DNA of 64,000 bases from Chloroflexota bacterium (GCA_036821185.1 DAISKD010000001.1:505934-569933); one strand, 5' to 3'. Numbered from the stretch's first letter, positions 26,248-57,785 are shown. The notes: generated from the sequence alone by a model not told the origin. Numbers and translations: made by a program.

Positions 26248-27156
26248 ATGGGAGACTGGCTCACTAACATGGATGCAAGCATCATTGTGCTCACCAAAAA
26301 CGCCGGCGAAGGCTGGGAGAGACTGCTCCAGCGCCTGTTTTCGCAGAATTTCAACGGCGATTATGAGGTCATCGTCATAGACTCCGGCTCCAGCGATGGC
26401 ACGGTGACCACAGCGCAACGTTTCCCGGTGAGGCTGGTGCAGATACCGACCCATGAATTCCACCACGGCAGGACGAGGAACCTCGGCGCCGGGCTTGCCC
26501 GCGGTAGCATCCTGGTCTACATCACCCAGGACGCCCTGCCACTTCGGGACGACTGGCTCCAAAAGCTTACCGCTAACTTCGCCGACCCCTCGGTAGCCAT
26601 GGTGTGCGGCCGACAAGTCCCCTGGGAAAACACCAAACCGCCGGAGAAGTTCTTCCATCTGTACAACTTCCCCGATTTCAAAATCCGCATCACCTCACAC
26701 GACCCGGACTACTACCACGATAACCTGTTCATCTCCGATGTCAACTCAGCCCTCAGAAAGGAGGTCTGGCAGCAGTCCCGCTTCTCGGACAAAGTCGTCG
26801 TGGCTGAGGACAAAGAGCTGGCAAAGCGCCTGCTCGATGCCGGCTGGACAATTATCTATGACCCTGAAGCCGCCGTGTACCACGCCCACGACCTCACCCT
26901 CCGCAGCGTTTTTGACCGATATGTCCTTTTCGGCATCGCCCTTGCCCAGGGTGCCGGTGGTCTCCCCCGCTCCAGGAACTGGGTTGCCCACCGTCTCGGC
27001 TACATATTCCAGGAGATCAAATTCGTCCTCTCCACAGGACGCTGGTGGTACTGGCTACCCTATTCCATAGCCTACGAGCTGAGCAAGCTCTGCGGCATCG
27101 CCTGCGGCTGGCTGTCCTCTCTTTTAAGGAAATGGCTAACCCGCCGGACAATGTAA
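26248..27156 (+). CDS. Family 2 glycosyltransferase
   Basis: The N-terminus has SIIVLTKNAGE and VIVIDSGSSDGT. The DxD motif TQDA is present. Confidence 0.75.
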   Translation: MGDWLTNMDASIIVLTKNAGEGWERLLQRLFSQNFNGDYEVIVIDSGSSDGTVTTAQRFPVRLVQIPTHEFHHGRTRNLGAGLARGSILVYITQDALPLRDDWLQKLTANFADPSVAMVCGRQVPWENTKPPEKFFHLYNFPDFKIRITSHDPDYYHDNLFISDVNSALRKEVWQQSRFSDKVVVAEDKELAKRLLDAGWTIIYDPEAAVYHAHDLTLRSVFDRYVLFGIALAQGAGGLPRSRNWVAHRLGYIFQEIKFVLSTGRWWYWLPYSIAYELSKLCGIACGWLSSLLRKWLTRRTM

Positions 27157-27286
27157 GCCCCTCGGCTCCCTGCTTACCCTCTTCCTCCATAGACCGTGAC
27201 TATGAACAACGACTGCCTAGTTACCTCTCCCTCAATGCAACGCAAGCCACCCGATTTCCTACTTACCATCTCCTATGGACCTCAAT

Positions 27287-27444
27287 TTTCCCTCTAGGGA
27301 GAGGGTTAGGGTGAAGGTTAGTGAGCCCCTCGATTTACCCTCTCCCTTGAGGGAGAGGGAATAGCTTCTTCTTTTGTGACCCAGCCTTCACGATTTACCC
27401 TCTCCCTTGAGGGAGAGGGTTAGGGTGAGGGTGAAATCAACCCC
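27287..27444. repeat. Three tandem copies of a palindromic, G-rich intergenic repeat, about 45–60 bp each, ending 27 bp upstream of wzm. Core: CGATTTACCCTCTCCC-TTGA-GGGAGAGGG-TTAGGGTGAGGGTGAAA.
   Basis: Copies lie at about 27287–27331, 27331–27390 and 27391–27444. Each contains the hairpin CCCTCTCCC-N4-GGGAGAGGG. The third carries a perfect (G3N3)x4 tract, GGGAGAGGGTTAGGGTGAGGG. Confidence 0.6.
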
Positions 27445-27470
27445 GCAAACAGTTACAATACATACAAAAA

Positions 27471-28223
27471 ATGTGGCAGTACAGAGAACTAATCCAGAAC
27501 CTGACTGTAGCCGAGTTCAAAAACCGCTACCAGAACACCACCCTCGGCTTCTTCTGGTCGCTGCTAAGCCCCCTGCTCCTCTCCATGGTCCTCTGGTTCG
27601 TCTTCAGGAACTTATTCCGCCAGGAGGAGAACTTCGCCGCCAACCTCCTGGTGGGCATAATGGCGTGGCGCTTCTTCGCCACCGCCACCTCATCCGCCCT
27701 GGGGGCGGTGGTGGGCAAGCCCAGCCTGGTGACCAAGGTCTATATCCCGCGGCAGATACTGGTGCTGAGCAATGTACTGGCAAACCTCATCAGCTCCCTC
27801 CTGGAGTTCCTCGTCCTCCTGCCCATCCTCTTCGTCCTGCTCAAGTACCTTCCCATCACCGTGCTACTCTTTCCCCTGGTGCATATCGTCTACCTACTGT
27901 TCATCTACGGCATCGGTCTGTTCCTCTCCGCACTGTACGTCTACTTCCGCGACCTCAACCAGATATGGGAGGTGCTGATAAACATCCTGTTCTTCTGTTC
28001 CCCCATCATCTACCCCCCGTCCATAGTCCCGGCATACCTCATGCCCTACTATGCCCTTAACCCCATGACCCAGTTCATAACCGCCTACCGCGACCTTATG
28101 GTCGCCGGCAGGCTGCCACAAGCCCTCAGCATAGCCGGCCTCATCGTCGTTGCCATCGTCGCCTGGTTCGTGGGCAACCTTATCTTCAACCGTCTCCAGC
28201 GCCGCTTCGCCGAGGAGATATAG
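27471..28223 (+). CDS. wzm: ABC-2 polysaccharide export permease (Wzm/TagG/KpsM type)
   Basis: The protein is a 250-aa six-TM ABC-2 permease. It lies directly upstream of the matching ATPase. Confidence 0.8.
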   Translation: MWQYRELIQNLTVAEFKNRYQNTTLGFFWSLLSPLLLSMVLWFVFRNLFRQEENFAANLLVGIMAWRFFATATSSALGAVVGKPSLVTKVYIPRQILVLSNVLANLISSLLEFLVLLPILFVLLKYLPITVLLFPLVHIVYLLFIYGIGLFLSALYVYFRDLNQIWEVLINILFFCSPIIYPPSIVPAYLMPYYALNPMTQFITAYRDLMVAGRLPQALSIAGLIVVAIVAWFVGNLIFNRLQRRFAEEI

Positions 28224-28282
28224 CCCATGCTTACCGTCGCTAGTGTTCCGCTGAACGCTAAAGCCCGCCACATGCAGGGCAG

Positions 28283-28362
28283 ATGTGAAGGCCCTTCCCT
28301 CTCCCTTGAGAGGGAGTCAGGCGGAGGCATTTCCCTCTCCCGTCAGGAAGAGGGTCAGGATG
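28283..28362. repeat. Two further copies of the same palindromic repeat family between wzm and wzt. The G-rich tail overlaps the wzt ribosome-binding site.
   Basis: The copies TTCCCTCTCCCTTGAGAGGGAG and TTTCCCTCTCCCGTCAGGAAGAGGGTCAGGATGAGGGTGTAAA are present. The second ends immediately before the ATG at 28373. Confidence 0.55.
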
Positions 28363-28372
28363 AGGGTGTAAA

Positions 28373-29107
28373 ATGTCTGCAGTAATTGCCCAAAACATCT
28401 CAAAAAGGTTCCGCATCCCCAAAGAAAAAAAGACCACCCTCTTCCAGAACATCGTCGGGCTGGTCAAAAGACAGTTCGACTACGAGGAGTTCTGGGCGCT
28501 GAAAGGCGTCAGCTTCGAGGTAAACAGAGGCGAGACCTTTGGCATCATCGGCAGGAACGGCTCCGGCAAGACGACGCTGCTCAAGATACTGGCGAAGGTG
28601 CTGTACCCGGACGGAGGCACGGTGACCATAAACGGTAAGGTCGCTTCCTTCCTGGAGCTCGGCGTCGGCTTCCAGCCTGAGCTCACCGCCCGCGACAACG
28701 TCTACATCTACGCCTCCATCCTCGGCATGGGGCGGAAACAGGTGGACAAGGTATACGATGATATCTTCGAGTTCGCCGAGCTTAAAAAGTTCCAGGACAT
28801 GAAGCTCAAAAACTACTCCTCCGGCATGTACCTCCGACTCGCCTTCTCCACAGCCATCCACGCCCGTCCTGAGACCATGCTCGTGGACGAGGTCCTGGCG
28901 GTGGGCGATGAGGCCTTCCAGAAAAAGTGCATGGCTAAGATAAACGAATTCAGAAGGCAGGGCATGACCATCATCCTGGTCTCACATGATCTGGGTATGG
29001 TCAGCGAGCTCTGCCAGCGCTCCCTGCTGCTCGACGCCGGGAGGGTGCTCTCCTTGGGCAATACGGAAAAGGTGATCGCCGATTACCACTCCTTGCTCCA
29101 GCGCTAG
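28373..29107 (+). CDS. wzt: Polysaccharide export ABC transporter ATP-binding protein (short Wzt/TagH/KpsT type with no C-terminal carbohydrate-binding domain)
   Basis: The Walker A motif GRNGSGKTTLLK, the signature motif YSSGM and the Walker B motif MLVDEVL are present. The protein is 244 aa. Confidence 0.85.
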   Translation: MSAVIAQNISKRFRIPKEKKTTLFQNIVGLVKRQFDYEEFWALKGVSFEVNRGETFGIIGRNGSGKTTLLKILAKVLYPDGGTVTINGKVASFLELGVGFQPELTARDNVYIYASILGMGRKQVDKVYDDIFEFAELKKFQDMKLKNYSSGMYLRLAFSTAIHARPETMLVDEVLAVGDEAFQKKCMAKINEFRRQGMTIILVSHDLGMVSELCQRSLLLDAGRVLSLGNTEKVIADYHSLLQR

Positions 29108-29153: not shown

Positions 29154-30352
29154 AATCTAAAATCTGGAGGCATCATAAACAGTGCAGCAACTCCTCAGCA
29201 ACCTACACCCCGGGCTATCATCCTGGTAACGCTGGACGCCCTCCGGGCTGACCACCTGGGGTGCTACGGTTACCCCCCACCCACCAGCCCTTTCCTGGAC
29301 AGCCTGGCATCGGATAGCATCGTCTTCGAATATGCTTTTTCGCCTATACCGCTCACCACTCCCTCCCACACCTCCATCCTCACCGGCGGATATCCCGGGT
29401 TTCACTCCATCGGCTTCCATAACGGCGACCGGCCCCTGAGCAGAGACCAGGAGGTCACCCTTCCCCAGCGCGAACTCAACCGCCCCCACGAGCCCAGGCA
29501 CAGCGCCGACCGTACCACCGCAGCGGTGCTCGACTGGCTTGGCATCCACCACACCTCCCCTTTCTTTCTCTGGGTGCACTACGGAGAGCCGCATGGACCT
29601 TACACCCCACCACCTCCCTACGATAACCTTTTCGTGGGCAATAAACTCTATGGCACCCCCCGTTTTCTGGAAAAAGTCCCCGATTGGGAAACAGGTGGTA
29701 TTCCACATTACCAGGTGCTCAAGCCCCGGCGCGATGCCGATGGCAACCTCATGGACTATGAAAAAGACCTCGCCTACTACTGGTCTTCCACGGTCTCACC
29801 GTCACCCTAGAGCAGGTGTATGTACCGCTGTTGATAAAGCCCCCCTCGCAGAGCCAGCTAAGACCGGTACGGTTCGGCATGCCTGTAAGCACCATCGACA
29901 TCATGCCCACCGTCCTCGCCTGGCTGGGACAGTATGCACAGTACCTGACGCTTCAGGGAATGAACTTGCTGCCGTCCCTTCAGGACAGCCTCATTTCCCT
30001 GCCGCAGCGGTACATATTCTCCGAGATCCCAACCCAGCTTTCGGTAATCAGCGGTCGCCTCCAGCTACTCTACGGCAAGGAAAAAAAGGACATGTCCTAT
30101 CCCCGGGTGCCGGCGGTGGAAGAGCTGAGGCTCATCGACCATACAGCCGACCCACTGGGCAGACGTGACCTTTCCACAGAATGCTCTGAGACCGCAACAG
30201 CGCTCAAGACCGCCGCCGAGTCCTATCTCAAGATTCCCCAGCCATCTTACACCGAAGGACAGCTTCCCCCAGGATGCAGAAGAAATAAGACTGCGATTGA
30301 AACAGCTTGGCCATGTGTATTAACATACTGTGGGAGAGGCAAACAAGGTTAA
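29154..30352 (+). pseudogene. Sulfatase-family gene (PF00884, alkaline phosphatase superfamily), disrupted. It has no canonical start codon, and the reading frame switches at a short poly-A run near 29760, from frame 0 (ORF 29526–29810) to frame 2 (ORF 29816–30352).
   Basis: The N-terminal part reads IILVTLDALRADHLGCYGY, then LTTPSHTSILTG, then WVHYGEPHGPY, in a frame with no ATG/GTG/TTG after the upstream stop at 29151. The C-terminal part reads LLLVFHGLTV...VYVPLLIKPP...STIDIMPTVLAWLG and is open from 29762 in a different frame. Confidence 0.6.
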
Positions 30353-31970
30353 GGCAATGACCCAAGTATGCTCTGTCTGTGGAAGTAGCAACACCGAATT
30401 GGAGGACAAACTTCAGAGTTCCTTCTCCGACGAGTTGCTTGAGCTACATCGTTGCAGATCCTGTGGCACATTGTTTTACCCGCATTCAAAAGGCATTTCC
30501 TACGATGAATGTAGCTTAGGATCCACTAAATTCTATATAGAGTTTAACGCGGGCCTACATGCCCCCTCCCACTTTATAACCAACCTGCGTCAGTTAGCCA
30601 GGGCAAAGCCAAAACCTAGTTTTTTAGATGTCGGCTGCGCCTTCGGTTTTGCACTGGACATGGCCCGATACCTGGGCTGGGATGCCACTGGGGTAGAACC
30701 ATCGCCCATCGCCTTGGAAGGGCAAAGAACGCTGCAGTTAAACATCATACAGGATTACTTAGAGTCAGCCGACTTGCCGTCCGCCTACGACCTCGTCCTA
30801 AGCAGCGAAACTATTGAGCATGTCCCAGACCCGCAGGGCTTCCTCAACCTGATCAACAAATACCTAAAGCCTGACGGTATTCTGTGCCTGACCACGCCGA
30901 ACAGCGAAGCATATGCCTCTGAATCAGTAGGAGAAAAGCTAGCGATGGCCTCCGCAGGGGTTCATCTCAATATCTTTTCACCCTACTCCATCGGGTTGCT
31001 CTTGGAGAGAGCTGGCTTTGCCGACTGTCGAATAGAGACCAGCGGGGGCGTCACAGGGAAAAAAGGGCTGGTGGTTTTTGCCACTAAGACGGGCAGACTT
31101 CCTAATTTTAAATACATAGCACCACTCGACAGCTCTTGCATCAAATTCATGATCGAATATCTCGAATATTTGGTCGAGGCCCGGGAAAAAGAACGGGACT
31201 ACCTGTACGATGGGGCACTATACAGGCTCGTAGAGCTATATACGAACTTAGGGAATCTGGCGCAGGCACACAGGCTCAGCATCAAGTTGGATGAAAGCAT
31301 CAGTGCAAAATATACGGTCGTCAGAGAGGAGTCCATAGATGCTTTTCTTCAAGTAGCCCGGCAAAAAGCAATCGGTTTCGACGATTATATCGCCAGTTCG
31401 CCATCATTCCTATCGCGATATCTCTATTGCAAAGGCATGGTCTGCTTAAACTTGCTGAGCGACTTTGCCAGAGCGGAAAAGCTCTTCACTCTGGCACACG
31501 ATTTGTTTAGCCACGAACAAGACACATTCAGACAATCTTTCGCCTCAAATTGGCAAATGGCCAGCAGGGCAAAATATCATGCGGCCCTCAGTATGTTGTA
31601 TGCCAAAAACAAAAAAGAAGGTCTACGCATTTTCGATCAACTTTTATCGAATGAACATGATTGCCCTTCGGACCTGATTCCGCAGGTCCATCTTTACAAA
31701 GGCATAGCCCATTTGCAACTCGGTGAGATTATCAGCGCACTAAAATCGTTTACACTTGGTTTAAAAAAGGCAACCAAACAAGCTTTTGTCAGACGCGCCA
31801 TCGATTATATAATCCTTGTCCTAAGACAGGGATGGGAGTTATCTCTTTACGCAACCATCACAGATCCCAGTACCTATACTAAGGTACCCCGCTTTAGAAA
31901 ACTCAAGCTCCTGTTCTGGTTCACATTTAGGAGACTCAGGCGACTTCTAACGTTCATGTTCGTCAAATAG
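30330..31970 (+). CDS. Class I SAM-dependent methyltransferase with an N-terminal zinc ribbon and a C-terminal helical (TPR-like) domain of about 280 aa
   Basis: The zinc ribbon reads CSVCGSS...CRSCGT. SAM motif I FLDVGCAFGF and motif II-III LVLSSETIEHVPDPQGFLNLINKYLKPDGIL are present. The start is either 30330 (GTG) or 30358 (ATG). Confidence 0.7.
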   Translation: MGEANKVKAMTQVCSVCGSSNTELEDKLQSSFSDELLELHRCRSCGTLFYPHSKGISYDECSLGSTKFYIEFNAGLHAPSHFITNLRQLARAKPKPSFLDVGCAFGFALDMARYLGWDATGVEPSPIALEGQRTLQLNIIQDYLESADLPSAYDLVLSSETIEHVPDPQGFLNLINKYLKPDGILCLTTPNSEAYASESVGEKLAMASAGVHLNIFSPYSIGLLLERAGFADCRIETSGGVTGKKGLVVFATKTGRLPNFKYIAPLDSSCIKFMIEYLEYLVEAREKERDYLYDGALYRLVELYTNLGNLAQAHRLSIKLDESISAKYTVVREESIDAFLQVARQKAIGFDDYIASSPSFLSRYLYCKGMVCLNLLSDFARAEKLFTLAHDLFSHEQDTFRQSFASNWQMASRAKYHAALSMLYAKNKKEGLRIFDQLLSNEHDCPSDLIPQVHLYKGIAHLQLGEIISALKSFTLGLKKATKQAFVRRAIDYIILVLRQGWELSLYATITDPSTYTKVPRFRKLKLLFWFTFRRLRRLLTFMFVK

Positions 31971-31980
31971 TGGTGGCTAT

Positions 31981-32913
31981 TCACAACATCCGGCTACCCC
32001 TGCTACCATCAGGCACCCATAAGCAACGCCCACTGGTAAGCATTTGGATATAAGCGTCTCCTCTTCTTCTATTCCTTTGAAGAAGTCTCCTCTTGCGCCT
32101 TATGCCCTGATTCACTAACACCTCTTTCAAAAACAAGATTACTCCTATGAGCCATGGTATAGGTGCGGGGCTAAACAAACTACTCGGCCAGAATGCTTTG
32201 ACAAAATTCCCCAACTCCATGTTCTTAAAGTAAGTCAAAAGCATGTTTCTACAAATTCTTATTTTCCTCTTAATGCTCATCCCGTAGGCAACGCCTCCAA
32301 TATGATGGACCACAATGTTAGGGTTATGTACACACCAGTAGCCTTGAAGATTTATCCTGTACCCTAGATCATGGTCTTCCCAATCAGACACAAAATCACC
32401 ATCTAGGAATTCGCCGAGTTCACGCAACACATCGCGGCGATATATAGCAGCAGCACCACAGGGCGCGAGACAGAAACATGGAGTGTAAATAGCCTGACGG
32501 TGGACCGCTATCAGCCCGCTGGCATCAAAAAAAACAGGCGCGTACCTGACAAACGACCCCCTGGTAGCAATACTGCAGGATACGGCTGCGATTTTCGGAT
32601 TCGACTCCAGAGACTCCACTAGCCTTTCGACAAAGTCGCGCGGAACCGAACAATCAGGGTTCAGCAATACGATGTACTTGCCAGCCGCGCAATTCAGCCC
32701 AACGTTATTGGCTCTCACAAAGTCCACATTCTCGGGTAAAGCTATGAGCTTGACTCGGTGATAGTTATCTCGAATGAGCTCCCTAGAGCCGTCTGTAGAG
32801 GCATTGTCCACCACTATGACTTCATGATCGGGGTATGTCTGGTCAAGGACTGTGTCCAGACATTCGGTGATGTACCTTTTGCCATTGTAATTTACAATTA
32901 TGGTGCTGACAGC
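31981..32913 (-). CDS. Family 2 glycosyltransferase. The conserved N-terminus begins immediately after an in-frame TAG (32914–32916), and no canonical start codon lies upstream of the internal GTG at 32814.
   Basis: Hand translation of 32913 to 32815 gives AVSTIIVNYNGKRYITECLDTVLDQTYPDHEVIVVDNASTDGS, a canonical GT2 N-terminus. It is continuous with the ORF-track protein that starts MVDNASTDGS. Confidence 0.65.
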   Translation of the reverse strand, partial: AVSTIIVNYNGKRYITECLDTVLDQTYPDHEVIVVDNASTDGSRELIRDNYHRVKLIALPENVDFVRANNVGLNCAAGKYIVLLNPDCSVPRDFVERLVESLESNPKIAAVSCSIATRGSFVRYAPVFFDASGLIAVHRQAIYTPCFCLAPCGAAAIYRRDVLRELGEFLDGDFVSDWEDHDLGYRINLQGYWCVHNPNIVVHHIGGVAYGMSIKRKIRICRNMLLTYFKNMELGNFVKAFWPSSLFSPAPIPWLIGVILFLKEVLVNQGIRRKRRLLQRNRRRGDAYIQMLTSGRCLWVPDGSRGSRML

Positions 32914-33495
32914 CTATCTTTCCTTACCCTTGGCCGGCGGGATCGTCCAAACGATGAAGAAAGGCTTGACTTTCACTTTTTTTACGCCAAGAGTGACGTG
33001 CTCACTCTCTCTATCTGCCCCTTTCACACAATATACTGCGATGGTGATATCATCAAAATAATCAGAATGTAATGATAGAGCGACCATGAGATTTTGGGAC
33101 GCGCAGTTGCACAGAGGTTCGAAGATAAACGAACATGATTCTTTGTCTTTCACCGCGGACAGATCCACATGACACTGCCGAAGGGGCTTCGCTGAGTACT
33201 CCTTATACAAACCCAGCGTGAGGCGTCCTTCCCCTTCCCGGAAAGACTTCCCGCCAGTGCCGAAAATGAAATCAATCCGGTACAGACCATCTTCTTCGTA
33301 TACGAGAGGTGAGACTATGCTACTATTATTTTTGAGTAGTACTATCTTCGGGCGTGTAAACAGTCGCGCCCATAGTCTTCTGACAAAGTACACAAACCTT
33401 TCCAACTCAGACCAGCCTTCGCCTGCTATAAAGCCGACGCTGTTTGTCCTTGTAGTTGATTGTACCAGATATGTCAAGACACCGCGCGCATGCAA
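32914..33495 (-). CDS. Hypothetical 193-aa ORF, in frame with the downstream GT2 and separated from it only by one TAG codon. It may be an N-terminal domain of a fused two-domain enzyme.
   Basis: The end coordinates 33495 and 32814 differ by 681, which is 227 x 3, so the two ORFs share a frame. No recognisable domain was found. Confidence 0.35.
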   Translation of the reverse strand: MHARGVLTYLVQSTTRTNSVGFIAGEGWSELERFVYFVRRLWARLFTRPKIVLLKNNSSIVSPLVYEEDGLYRIDFIFGTGGKSFREGEGRLTLGLYKEYSAKPLRQCHVDLSAVKDKESCSFIFEPLCNCASQNLMVALSLHSDYFDDITIAVYCVKGADRESEHVTLGVKKVKVKPFFIVWTIPPAKGKER

Positions 33496-33520
33496 CGCAG
33501 TCCACTGTGCAAGCCCACCT

Positions 33521-34290
33521 TAAATCAGCAGCGAACATTCAAGTACCTGCAGATGGCGTAAAATACATCCTGCGGTCTCTCTATTAGGATGGTTGATGTT
33601 GGCGATTATCAGCAGCGCATTTTCGTGGTGGTCACCTTTTATCACACCGTGCTCCGTCTCCCGGGGCAATGTCTGCACCTTAGCCTCACCGAAGGGGCAG
33701 AAGCCGTGGTCGGAGACGATGATCAGTCCATTGGTCCGTCCTCCATAAAGCCGGTGGCAAACAGGAGTTCGCCAATCCTGTCATCCAGCCTGCGGCACCA
33801 TTCCAGGACGGTGTCCTCTCCCCAGTGAAAGTGCTGCGCCCTGTCCAGCAGGGTGTACACCGCGATGAGCAGGTCAGGTCTTCTTAGCAGTAGCGCCCTG
33901 GTCCTGGCAGTCACCGCTCAAGCCCCTCCTGCCATTCCCTCTCATTGATTGATAGCCCGAACCCTACCGGTCGGAAATCCACATTGAAGCAGTAAGGCGG
34001 CACCACAAAGGGTACATTCAATACACAGACCTTCTTCCCCTCCCTCTGCACTATGTCCCAGATGAAGTCAACCTTTATGTCCTCCCGCCTAACTATGTTC
34101 CCCCAACCACAAAGCTGTTGTGTCCGTGTTCCCGTTATGTCCTGCCGCAGAATATACCACACCATATCGAAGGCGAGACCGGCTTCTCCCTGATGACCAG
34201 CTCGCGGCAATCAGCGGTCTGGCTCAGCTTTTTGAACGAAGGCAGGAAGTCCAGGTTCGGCCTTACCACCGTCCAGGTGGCACCGTCTAT
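33521..34290 (-). pseudogene. Type I phosphodiesterase / nucleotide pyrophosphatase family gene (PF01663, alkaline phosphatase superfamily), shattered over at least 3 reading frames
   Basis: The frames are ORF 33911–34210, ORF 33723–33914 and an unlisted frame at 33521–33720. The fragments read DLLIAVYTLLDRAQHFHWGED and ...FMEDGPMD(stop), with the next frame reading NGLIIVSDHGFCPFGEAKV...HGVIKGDHH. Confidence 0.55.
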
Positions 34291-34304
34291 CCCCAGGACG
34301 AATA

Positions 34305-35138
34305 TCAATATCTGACCTCCAGCACTATGCCCGCGCCGATGTTTTTGCCCCGTGACAGGACAAACCTGCCCAGCTCCGGTATTTCACAGAACCTCTCCAC
34401 CACCAGCGGCTCGGTGTCAAAAACGATGGTCGCCGCCTCGTGTTCGCCAATGTGGTCAGGACGCTCCATCAGTACCTCACCGGTCTCCGAGTCGATCTTC
34501 TGACAAAACTCTCTGATACAGCACCTGACCCGTCGTGTACCGCATCTCAATTCCAGCGTGTCGCCAGTGCTCAGCCTGCCATCAAGCAGCACCGCCTCGC
34601 CAAGGAACCTGGTGGTCACCACCGGAGCACTGTCGACCAGCCCACCGACCTCGCCGCGCACTGCCCTACAGGTGGTAACAAGTCCCACGCTGTCTCCTTC
34701 CTCTGCTTCCTCAAGTTCACCCTCGAACCTCCTTATTTGCTGCACCCTCCCTCTGGACCCGGAGGGATAGAATACCAGTTCATCGCCTTTACACAGTTTG
34801 CCCGATTCCACCCTGCCCACCACGATTTCCCGCCCATCAACGGTATAAATATCCTGGACCACAAACCTCAACGGTCTGGTCTGCCGTCTTATCTCCATGC
34901 TGTCCAGCGCCTCTATAAGGGTAGCCCGTTATACCAGGGCATCCTTCCCGATTTGCGGTAAATGTTGTCCCCCCATGGCTGACCCCGGGATGAACGTAAC
35001 TCCATGATAACCGAACGAGTCCAGCAGGGCGGCGACTTTTTCCCTGACATCATCGAAGACCTCCTGCTGGTAGCCTACAGCGTCCATCTCGTTCACCACC
35101 AGCAGTTCCTTCAGCCCGAGCATCCGTGTCAGGAACAC
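34305..35138 (-). pseudogene. Sulfate adenylyltransferase large subunit-like GTPase (CysN/NodQ-like). It lacks the N-terminal P-loop region and is interrupted by an in-frame TAA at 34929–34931.
   Basis: The fragments LGLKELLVVNEMDAVGYQQEVFDDVREKV...IPGSAMGG and TLIEALDSMEIRRQTRPLRFVVQDIY...VVGRVESGKLCKGDEL...GRFVLSRGKNIGAGIV align by eye to the CysN G-domain end and domains II/III. ORFs 34929–35138 and 34305–34898 share a frame. Confidence 0.6.
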
Positions 35139-35182
35139 GTACCTCAGAGCTGGTTCAGATAGATCAGCGGTACCGACTGACT

Positions 35183-35235
35183 CCCTCCCATAATGGGAGA
35201 GAGTATGATGGGAGAGGGTGAAAACAAGCAGAGAA
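35183..35235. repeat. Degenerate copy of the palindromic G-rich repeat family (third locus)
   Basis: The sequence CTCCCTCCCATAATGGGAGAGAGTATGATGGGAGAGGGTGAAAAC shares the CCCTCCC...GGGAGAGGGTGAAA core. Confidence 0.4.
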
Positions 35236-35352
35236 GGAAGCCTGCTGTTCTGGCCTCAGGACTGAAGACCAAAGTGTCACCGGTCTACTGGACGGGTACC
35301 ACCTATTGACAGGACGACACCCGGAGGGGTAAATTCGGTCCCGGAGGTCGGT

Positions 35353-35811
35353 ATGAAGCTGGTCAGCGCCTGTCTGCTTGGGGTGAGGTGCAACTGGCGC
35401 GGGGATGAAAGCTACCTCGACGGGAATGTGCTGAAGCTGGCAGGGGCAGAGCCAGTGCTGCCGGTGTGTCCGGAGCAGCTCGGTGGGCTGCCCACGCCGA
35501 GGGTCCCGCAGGAGATACACGGAGGCAGCGGCGAGGACGTGCTCGTCGGCAGGGCTAGGGTCATCAATAAGGAAGGCGTGGACGTTACCGCACAGGTCAT
35601 CAGAGGTGCCGAGGAGACGCTGAAGCTGGCAAGGCTCGCCGGCATCACGGAGTTCATCGGTAAATCGGGAAGTCCCTCCTGCGGCTGTAACTGGATATAC
35701 GACGGCTCGTTTTCGGGAAAACAGACATCGGGCAAAGGGGTCACCGCAGCACTGCTGGAGAAGCACGGCATCAGCCTAATCCCTCAGGAGGAGCTGGCAG
35801 CACAGGGGTGA
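35353..35811 (+). CDS. DUF523 family protein (TudS-like Cys-rich protein)
   Basis: The N-terminus MKLVSACLLGVRCNWRGD and the later GSPSCGC match the DUF523 signature. Confidence 0.7.
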   Translation: MKLVSACLLGVRCNWRGDESYLDGNVLKLAGAEPVLPVCPEQLGGLPTPRVPQEIHGGSGEDVLVGRARVINKEGVDVTAQVIRGAEETLKLARLAGITEFIGKSGSPSCGCNWIYDGSFSGKQTSGKGVTAALLEKHGISLIPQEELAAQG

Positions 35812-57709: not shown

Positions 57710-57785
57710 GGTGGAGCTGATGGGATTCGAACCCACTACCTTTTGACTGCCAGTCAAACGCTCTCCCAATTGAGCTACAGCCCCG
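57710..57785 (-). tRNA. tRNA-Ala (anticodon GGC), with an encoded CCA end
   Basis: The reverse complement folds as a cloverleaf: GGGGCTGTAGCTCAATTGGGAGAGCGTTTGACTGGCAGTCAAAAGGTAGTGGGTTCGAATCCCATCAGCTCCACCA. The anticodon loop is CTGGCAG. The G3:U70 alanine identity pair and the GGTTCGAATCC T-arm are present. Confidence 0.85.

Follow-up and report, generated by a model that had tools for sequence, protein, structure and literature searches.

BoxC repeats in the polysaccharide exporter operon of a Chloroflexota bacterium and at the orthologous junctions of its relatives

A short, palindromic and G-rich sequence recurs around the genes of a polysaccharide exporter in a 64,000-nt stretch of Chloroflexota DNA (GCA_036821185.1, DAISKD010000001.1:505934-569933; this whole stretch is called the window below), which raises the question of whether it controls the exporter or is a repeat that came to lie between its genes. 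The original prediction described a dispersed palindromic repeat with three loci, either REP/MITE-like or regulatory (an attenuator, an RNA thermometer or a G-quadruplex (G4) switch of polysaccharide export), which no list of standard feature types explains. Our analysis identified the repeat as BoxC, an element known from Escherichia coli. Its copies were probably inserted into two junctions at which most relatives have the genes closely packed, and they did not belong to the ancestral regulation of the exporter operon. The host appears to be an uncultured Dehalococcoidia-like member of the Chloroflexota; the best named homologues of the ClpC protein encoded in the window come from Chloroflexota or Dehalococcoidia (~80% identity). 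The window corresponds to a part of a JGI metagenome contig of 251 kb (3300010288, Ga0116210_1000003).

The two clear repeat loci of the window lie between three genes of the + strand: a gene encoding a family-2 glycosyltransferase (GT2, 26248-27156; Pfam PF00535, 1.2e-17), wzm, encoding the ABC-2 permease of a polysaccharide exporter (27471-28223; PF01061, 2.7e-22), and wzt, encoding the ABC ATPase of this exporter (28373-29107; PF00005, 3.1e-21). Three copies (A1 to A3) are found in the spacer between GT2, their upstream neighbour, and wzm (27157-27470), and two (B1 and B2) in the wzm-wzt spacer (28224-28372), as had been predicted for the wzm leader and the wzm-wzt spacer. A sixth, marginal copy (C) lies further downstream. 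All copies are intergenic, i.e. located between genes called by JGI and confirmed by Pfam, B1 and B2 being included in a short non-conserved ORF (28227-28385).

The hairpin pattern CCCTCTCCC-N4-GGGAGAGGG has three matches in the window compared to 0.06 expected, a number that none of 100 shuffles attained; two of these matches are perfect (27338-27359 and 27398-27419) and one carries one mismatch (28333-28354). The G-rich tail GGGAGAGGGTTAGGGTGAGGGTG likewise has three matches, starting from 27297, 27411 and 28346, when up to three mismatches are allowed (0.00 expected), and the 9-mer CCCTCTCCC occurs nine times (0.95 expected). Furthermore, a family profile based on 159 non-redundant copies, all from other genomes, was run on the window with nhmmer and detected A3 (E = 1.3e-13), A1 (1e-7), B2 (6e-7) and A2 (1e-5); B1 was marginal (0.6) and copy C was undetected (E > 10). 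Both the match statistics and the profile thus bear out the dispersed, palindromic, REP-like repeat that had been proposed. One unit of the six is intact (A3), three are significant and partial or degenerate (A1, A2, B2) and two are marginal (B1, C).

All the copies are in direct orientation on the + strand. A3 (27398-27435) is an intact unit of the class described as BoxC/TMECO type A: it consists of a C-arm, a TTGA loop, a G-arm, a TTA loop, a second G-arm and a TGAA tail, and its predicted hairpin has an energy of -19.8 kcal/mol. A2 (27338-27359) is the perfect 9-bp hairpin CCCTCTCCC-TTGA-GGGAGAGGG alone, an exact match devoid of the third, G-rich arm, with a predicted RNA hairpin of -18.7 kcal/mol (z = -4.8). 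A1 (27289-27317; profile match 27287-27314) is a partial unit, TCCCTCT-A-GGGAGAGGG-TTA-GGGTGAAGG, whose left arm and loop are truncated and whose third arm and tail have one and two mismatches, respectively; its predicted hairpin is weak (-10.8 kcal/mol, z = -0.6). B1 (28295-28328; profile match 28295-28310) reads CCCTCTCCC-TTGA-GAGGGAG-TCA-GGCGGAGGC and is degenerate apart from its exact C-arm; not significant by itself, it is called a copy because of its position and of its homology with the tandem arrays of relatives. B2 (28329-28372; profile match 28329-28370) is also degenerate, CCCTCTCCC-GTCA-GGAAGAGGG-TCA-GGATGAGGG-TGTAAA. Copy C (35182-35224), located in a divergent intergenic region according to the JGI gene calls, reads TCCCTCCC-ATAAT-GGGAGAGAG-TATGAT-GGGAGAGGG-TGAAAA and is strongly decayed. 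Since it keeps a 13/14 match to GGGTGAGGGTGAAA (also given as GGGAGAGGGTGAAA; 0.03 expected) but forms only a weak hairpin and is missed by the profile, it is a plausible, unproven decayed copy. Therefore, two of the three proposed loci stand and the third is doubtful. Likewise, the description of each unit as a perfect 9-bp hairpin followed by a G-rich tail fits A3 only: the perfect hairpin is present in two of the six copies (A2 and A3), and the others are degenerate.

On the side of copy C lie the ORFs 34305-34898 and 34929-35123, both on the - strand. A 197-aa ORF has only an EF-Tu domain 2 and an eEF1A-like C-terminal domain, devoid of the GTPase domain, consistent with the "CysN remnant" reported there. 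Several short ORFs without Pfam match are found in the region 29157-35800.

The second loop is TTA in A1 and A3, which therefore belong to type A, and TCA in B1 and B2; there is no inverted pair of type A and type B units in the window. The number of G3 tracts decreases from four in A3 to three in A1, two in B2, and two or fewer in A2 and B1. The canonical G4 motif, (G3+N1-7)x4, is present only in A3 (GGG-AGA-GGG-TTA-GGG-TGA-GGG, 27411-27431), on the coding strand as predicted. A search with the exact Wzm protein gave only the source contig and an identical Logan contig. In this independent assembly of the same strain, the contig (Logan SRR5214706, L002, 1-81) starts exactly inside A3; tandem repeats disrupt short-read assembly, which accounts for a break at this point.

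The identity of the family was established from A3. Over 38 nt, it is identical to the copy found between hrpB and mrcB in E. coli K-12 (NC_000913) and to two copies from Dehalococcoidia MAGs; the 38 invariant consecutive bases are CCCTCTCCCTTGAGGGAGAGGGTTAGGGTGAGGGTGAA, and the flanks are unrelated. The sequence of A3 equals that of TMECO no. 2 of E. coli K-12, listed as CCCTCTCCCTTGAGGGAGAGGGTTAGGGTGAGGGT in Table 1 of Holder et al. 2015 (PMC4666352). The general pattern of these authors, 5'-CCCTCNCCC-N3-6-GGGNGAGGG-N3-GGGNGAGGG-3', is matched exactly by A3 (27398-27431), the other five copies requiring mismatches or indels. A3 is a BoxC element, i.e. a dispersed, non-coding, hairpin-forming sequence of 35-42 nt. 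BoxC was described in the 1990s and rediscovered as PIT, TMECO and then HPGQ (PMC4666352, PMC5100583), the name PIT going back to Hoyne/Maher 2000 as these two papers report it and HPGQ being the "G-quadruplex-hairpin-duplex switch" motif of Kaplan et al. 2016 (PMC5100583). The repeat had been thought to escape every standard feature type, but it has a name, indeed four of them, and Enterobacter sp. 638 carries about 100 copies of the same hairpin (Taghavi et al. 2010, PMC2869309). A scan of the window against Rfam at the gathering threshold found only a tRNA (57712-57784); at permissive settings, the repeat region gave sub-threshold miRNA-like noise.

The core of the element is present in 4575 of 5426 complete E. 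coli genomes, and Holder et al. found their pattern in 262 proteobacterial genomes (PMC4666352). In E. coli K-12, the element is always intergenic (PMC4666352, PMC5100583) and is not associated with a functional class of genes (PMC4666352). It blocks DNA polymerase in vitro (PMC4666352, PMC5100583), and the loci that carry it are unusually variable between E. coli strains (PMC4666352). Neither a function nor a mobilizing enzyme is known for it according to these two papers (PMC4666352, PMC5100583).

Our search reveals that the element extends far beyond this group. The exact type-A core was scanned over one genome per GTDB species and gave at least 120 matches, from many Dehalococcoidia MAGs and at least eight other phyla. 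The matches listed include about 31 from Chloroflexota (mostly Dehalococcoidia MAGs), about 21 from Enterobacterales and 12 from Azospirillum, besides matches from other Alpha-, Beta- and Gammaproteobacteria, Desulfobacterota, Myxococcota, Planctomycetota, Elusimicrobiota, Ignavibacteriota, Caldithrix, Zixibacteria, Acidobacteriota and Methylomirabilia. The Chloroflexota consensus is atC-CCCTCTCCC-TTGA-GGGAGAGGG-TTA-GGGTGAGGG-TGAAA, with flanks that are unique at each site. The looser pattern of Holder et al. also matches at least 120 stretches of IMG/VR contigs. In these viral matches (L003-L122), the second loops are more varied (CCG, TTG, CTG), and the arms show mostly T:A pairs, frequent G:A mismatches and only four compensatory C:G pairs, too small a basis to speak for or against selection on the hairpin. 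In one Dehalococcoidia MAG (L201, OZ244908.1, 1624001-1632000), 8 kb contain at least 20 BoxC units, which take up most of the space left between the longer ORFs; many of them are composite units of 105-123 nt in which an inverted type-A unit is paired with a direct type-B-like unit (CTG loop), the same pairing as that described for E. coli. A literature search for the motif in Chloroflexi or Dehalococcoidia found no paper, so that, within the literature searched, its abundance in the latter group seems not to have been documented.

To what extent the copies belong to the operon can be judged from the orthologous junctions, which were compared in 80 metagenomic loci encoding relatives of Wzm (60-86% identity), wzm, wzt, GT2 and BoxC being located in each. 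In about 45 of the approximately 70 loci that have both genes, the wzm-wzt spacer measures -3 to +3 nt, i.e. the stop and start codons are adjacent or overlapping. Such an empty junction reads ...GCCGAGGAGGTATGATGAGCGCC (also shown as ...GAGGAGGTATGATGAGC), and the Shine-Dalgarno (SD) sequence GAGGAGG lies inside wzm. The filled wzm-wzt spacers of the closest relatives measure 185-452 nt and contain two to seven BoxC units: two in L246 (185 nt), three in L245 and L253 (218 nt), at least six in L243 (370 nt) and seven, with a tandem period of 69 nt, in L244 (452 nt). Four relatives that are 80-82% identical (L249, L250, L294 and L295) have neither a wzm-wzt spacer nor a BoxC copy at this junction. 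The GT2-wzm spacer measures about 10 nt in L243, L244, L245, L249, L250 and L253, and contains repeats in L246 (272 nt, with orthologous BoxC copies) and in the window (314 nt). On the Wzm tree, filled and empty states of the junction interleave. Moreover, the pair L264/L265 is polymorphic for the insertion: the last 113 nt of wzm are 100% identical and L264 has a clean insert of 138 nt (L264 3753-3890 compared to L265 3753). These empty junctions, the variation from zero to seven copies, the interleaving of states and the L264/L265 insert identify the BoxC copies as lineage-variable insertions and expansions rather than as a conserved control element.

Several substitutions also distinguish L264 from L265, all of them within the first ~40 nt of wzt. 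Because this diverged patch accompanies the insert, the polymorphism points to homologous recombination of the spacer rather than to de novo insertion, and looks like an exchange of a "spacer cassette" between strains. Other repeats use the same junction: an unrelated palindromic repeat, GTCATTGCGAGTCCCGATTCATCGGGACGTGGCAATCT, occurs in the wzm-wzt spacer of L252 (1394-1594) and in L288, L254, L264, L273 and L281, flanked by a direct duplication of ~25-30 nt of the 5' end of wzt (ATGAGCGCCATAATCGTTGACAAC...), and a further repeat, GCTGTCATCCTGAGCGTAGCGAAGGAGCTCGCC, is present in L257 and L261. The duplication of the 5' end of wzt was considered as a target-site duplication of BoxC and rejected, since the insert between its two copies is composite and has another palindromic repeat, GTCATTGCGAG...GCAATCT, as its constant part, and since the L264/L265 case looks like recombination of a cassette; it was thus not used as evidence for transposition of BoxC. 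In L244 (3795-4204), a further, isolated CCCTCTCCC arm precedes the hairpin by 12 nt in each period of the seven-unit array.

The last BoxC unit of the wzm-wzt spacer occupies a particular position. In the window, the SD sequence of wzt, GAGGG (28362-28366), is the third arm of B2 and is located 6 nt before the ATG (28373). The last unit abuts the wzt ATG (GGGTGAGGGTGAAATG) in L243 to L246, L253, L257 and L261 and lies about 10 nt upstream of it in the group of L252, which supports the use of the G-rich tail as the wzt ribosome-binding site already noticed in the window. The wzm ATG, for its part, is preceded by an A-rich leader without SD sequence, and the same holds for L244, which has no GT2-wzm insert.

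The filled spacers also contain an ORF that runs from the end of wzm to the start of wzt, hereafter the relay ORF. In the window, its 52 codons (28227-28385, + strand; ORF list and translation) extend through B1 and B2, beginning 3 nt after the wzm stop and ending 12 nt inside wzt. Of 22 filled spacers in relatives, 21 contain a corresponding ORF, L272 being the exception. This ORF starts at the wzm stop or overlaps it; its start is, in many relatives, the old wzt start codon retained as a duplicate of ~25-30 nt. Relative to the functional wzt ATG, its end falls in the range from -21 to +12 nt (-65 in L243). In the frame used in the window, translation of a canonical unit would meet a TAG stop at the TTA loop, but this loop is TCA in both B1 and B2. 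Both tandem periods, 69 and 39 nt, are divisible by three, and the whole array of L244 forms a single open frame (...PSPLRERVRVRVPAVLPSPC...), about 146 codons long, from a GTG just after the wzm stop. At each locus taken alone, the pattern is weak compared to shuffles (P ~0.05-0.2), and the loci are phylogenetically non-independent. Given this significance and shared ancestry, we infer, rather than observe, that ribosomes translate the relay ORF, that it is under selection and that it preserves the translational coupling of wzm and wzt.

The following scenario best accounts for these observations. BoxC copies probably entered the GT2-wzm junction (~10 nt) and the wzm-wzt junction (stop and start adjacent or overlapping), and were then amplified in tandem and decayed. 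Two features would make them tolerable to the operon. The GAGGG tail of the last unit would have replaced the SD sequence formerly provided by the 3' end of wzm, and an ORF starting from the wzm stop would have been kept open through the insert up to the wzt start. With the SD sequence replaced and the relay ORF open, ribosomes would continue to reach wzt and would unfold the hairpins on their way. As modes of spread, replication slippage and the exchange of whole spacer cassettes by homologous recombination are compatible with the data. Any effect on expression would probably be a by-product of stable RNA hairpins of about -19 kcal/mol and of the uncoupling of wzm from GT2; effects of the hairpins on mRNA stability or processing are possible, and a secondary regulatory effect on the wzm/wzt ratio may exist.

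A purely passive, junk-like view of BoxC fails to explain its extreme identity across phyla, which argues for something sequence-specific acting on it. One could go further and regard BoxC, given the 38-nt identity and the presence of its core in many phyla and in viral contigs, as a single pan-bacterial element that moves horizontally and would be recognised by a sequence-specific machinery; in coupled operons, moreover, its inserts would be domesticated through a repeat-encoded relay ORF. We consider this conjecture as conceivable and rather doubtful. If true, Dehalococcoidia genomes, some of which have BoxC in nearly every intergenic gap, could reveal this machinery by phylogenetic profiling.

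The alternative that survives best considers the copies as recent transposition products of an active mobile element, REP/REPIN- or MITE-like, moved in trans by a dedicated enzyme and exchanged across phyla. It draws on the 38-nt identity between Chloroflexota and Enterobacteriaceae, on the exact core found in Pseudomonadota, Desulfobacterota and the other phyla listed above, on the IMG/VR matches, on the unique flanks of each site, on the presence/absence polymorphism of the near-identical strains L264 and L265 and on the density of copies in the 8 kb of the Dehalococcoidia MAG. However, an association with a transposase or a RAYT has not been reported (PMC4666352), nor was it seen here, and our analysis identified no mobilizing enzyme; comparison of filled and empty junctions found neither terminal inverted repeats nor a short target-site duplication. 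MITEs, which these two features would characterize, measure ~100-400 bp compared to ~40 nt for the unit studied here. In addition, the L264/L265 difference points to recombination of a cassette, and the flanking duplication of ~25 nt belongs to the other repeat. Recent transposition is thus rather unlikely as the origin of the copies in the window.

Another explanation is that the repeat adopts a non-B-DNA structure, either an intrastrand purine-motif triplex or a G4 on single-stranded DNA, which stalls replication or repair and creates a local hot spot of rearrangements, explaining the nearby "pseudogene zone". As read from the sequence, the arms of A3 permit nine G.GC, A.AT or T.AT triads, i.e. 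a perfect purine-motif triplex, and oligonucleotides of TMECO type A fold as an intrastrand triplex in vitro (PMC4666352). The greater rearrangement of TMECO loci among E. coli strains (PMC4666352), the hypervariable spacer length and copy number among relatives and the assembly that breaks within the repeat go in the same direction. However, DMS footprinting gave no sign of the triplex in vivo in E. coli (PMC4666352), triplex-compatible arms are lost in five of the six copies of the window, and copy C, on which a link with the decayed region (29-35 kb) would depend, is a marginal match only. We regard this explanation as unlikely.

The regulatory reading, a dedicated cis-acting switch of wzm and wzt (attenuator, RNA thermometer or G4/hairpin switch), fares worse. 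It would be consistent with the sense-strand copies found in both the wzm leader and the wzm-wzt spacer, with the four G3 tracts of A3, with the stable hairpins, with the overlap between the tail and the wzt SD sequence and with the ion-dependent change between hairpin-like and G4 signatures displayed in vitro by oligonucleotides of the same class (PMC5100583). There is also a promoter-like site (27431-27459, + strand) whose -35 box, GTGAAA, is the tail of A3, separated by 17 nt from a -10 box, TACAAT (27454-27459), that ends 11 nt before the wzm ATG. The scan for the sigma-70-like consensus found this one site compared to 0.6 expected, and L246 has a -10-like TAGAAT at the equivalent place; a sigma-70-like promoter using the A3 tail is a lead only. 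However, the element is missing at most orthologous junctions and varies from zero to seven copies among close relatives, the G4 motif is kept in one copy of six, and no Rfam family matches. An intrinsic terminator or attenuator was rejected because no GC-rich hairpin directly followed by a U-run (T-run in the DNA) was found on the sense strand (+) between 26900 and 28600. An RNA thermometer or another sequestration of the SD sequence was rejected because GAGGG is essentially unpaired in the predicted minimum-energy fold of B2 and because the element is absent from most orthologous junctions. In E. coli, moreover, the element has no functional gene class association and, according to the work of Maher's group as it is cited in Holder et al. 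(PMC4666352), neither promoter nor terminator activity. The proposal of a switch for polysaccharide export is accordingly very improbable. Finally, chance similarity of G-rich, low-complexity DNA, which could be invoked for B1 and copy C as individually weak matches, has practically no probability left and is refuted for A1, A2, A3 and B2 by the match statistics, the shuffles, the profile and the 38-nt identity to other genomes.

Insertion of BoxC copies into junctions that are tight in most relatives is thus the reading that we retain. The repeat family itself was already known; what is new is its occurrence in an unexpected phylum. BoxC has been known for about 30 years without an accepted function or a known way of spreading. 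The presence of the same 38-mer in uncultured Dehalococcoidia, and of its core far beyond Proteobacteria, sharpens the question of what holds this sequence invariant. The wzm-wzt junction provides a natural allelic series (0, 1, 2, 3 and 7 copies), in which some filled and empty alleles are near-isogenic and which could serve for testing the effects of BoxC on expression and stability. For genome annotation, such spacers and the ORFs that they contain (PSPLRERVRVRV-type "proteins") should be considered as repeat-derived, neither as genes nor as riboswitches.

The copies found here resemble BoxC of E. coli by the 38-nt identity of A3, by their three-arm architecture and TTA second loop, by their intergenic location in multiple copies with unique flanks, by frequent duplicates or triplicates and by local indel variability. 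They differ by their host, an apparently Dehalococcoidia-like Chloroflexota compared to the 262 proteobacterial genomes of Holder et al., and by the exclusively direct orientation of the copies of the window, most of them decayed and none forming an inverted type A and type B pair. They also differ by their location within an operon, at formerly coupled junctions, one copy doubling as a ribosome-binding site. The repeats of Enterobacter sp. 638, described as CCCTCTCCCXX(X)GGGAGAGGG, have the same 9-bp arms and are often duplicated or triplicated beside genes (PMC2869309). Their loop is mostly 2-3 nt long (TGT/ACA) compared to TTGA here, and the authors presumed a role as terminators (PMC2869309), whereas the copies of the window have no terminator-like tail. 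REP/BIME sequences and REPINs are likewise short, GC-rich extragenic palindromes, dispersed, often clustered and located within operons, that form stable hairpins in mRNA. However, BoxC has neither their GTAG-type 5' tetranucleotide (none was found beside the palindrome, the flanks being atC and TTA) nor a known link with RAYTs, and its third, G-rich arm is foreign to REP sequences. Lastly, the empty junctions of relatives (...GAGGAGGTATGATGAGC) are of the type known from termination-reinitiation coupling (ATGA/TGATG), and the relay ORF likewise leads from the wzm stop to the wzt start. In the filled spacers, by contrast, coupling would be maintained through an intervening ORF of 35-146 codons that consists largely of repeat sequence.
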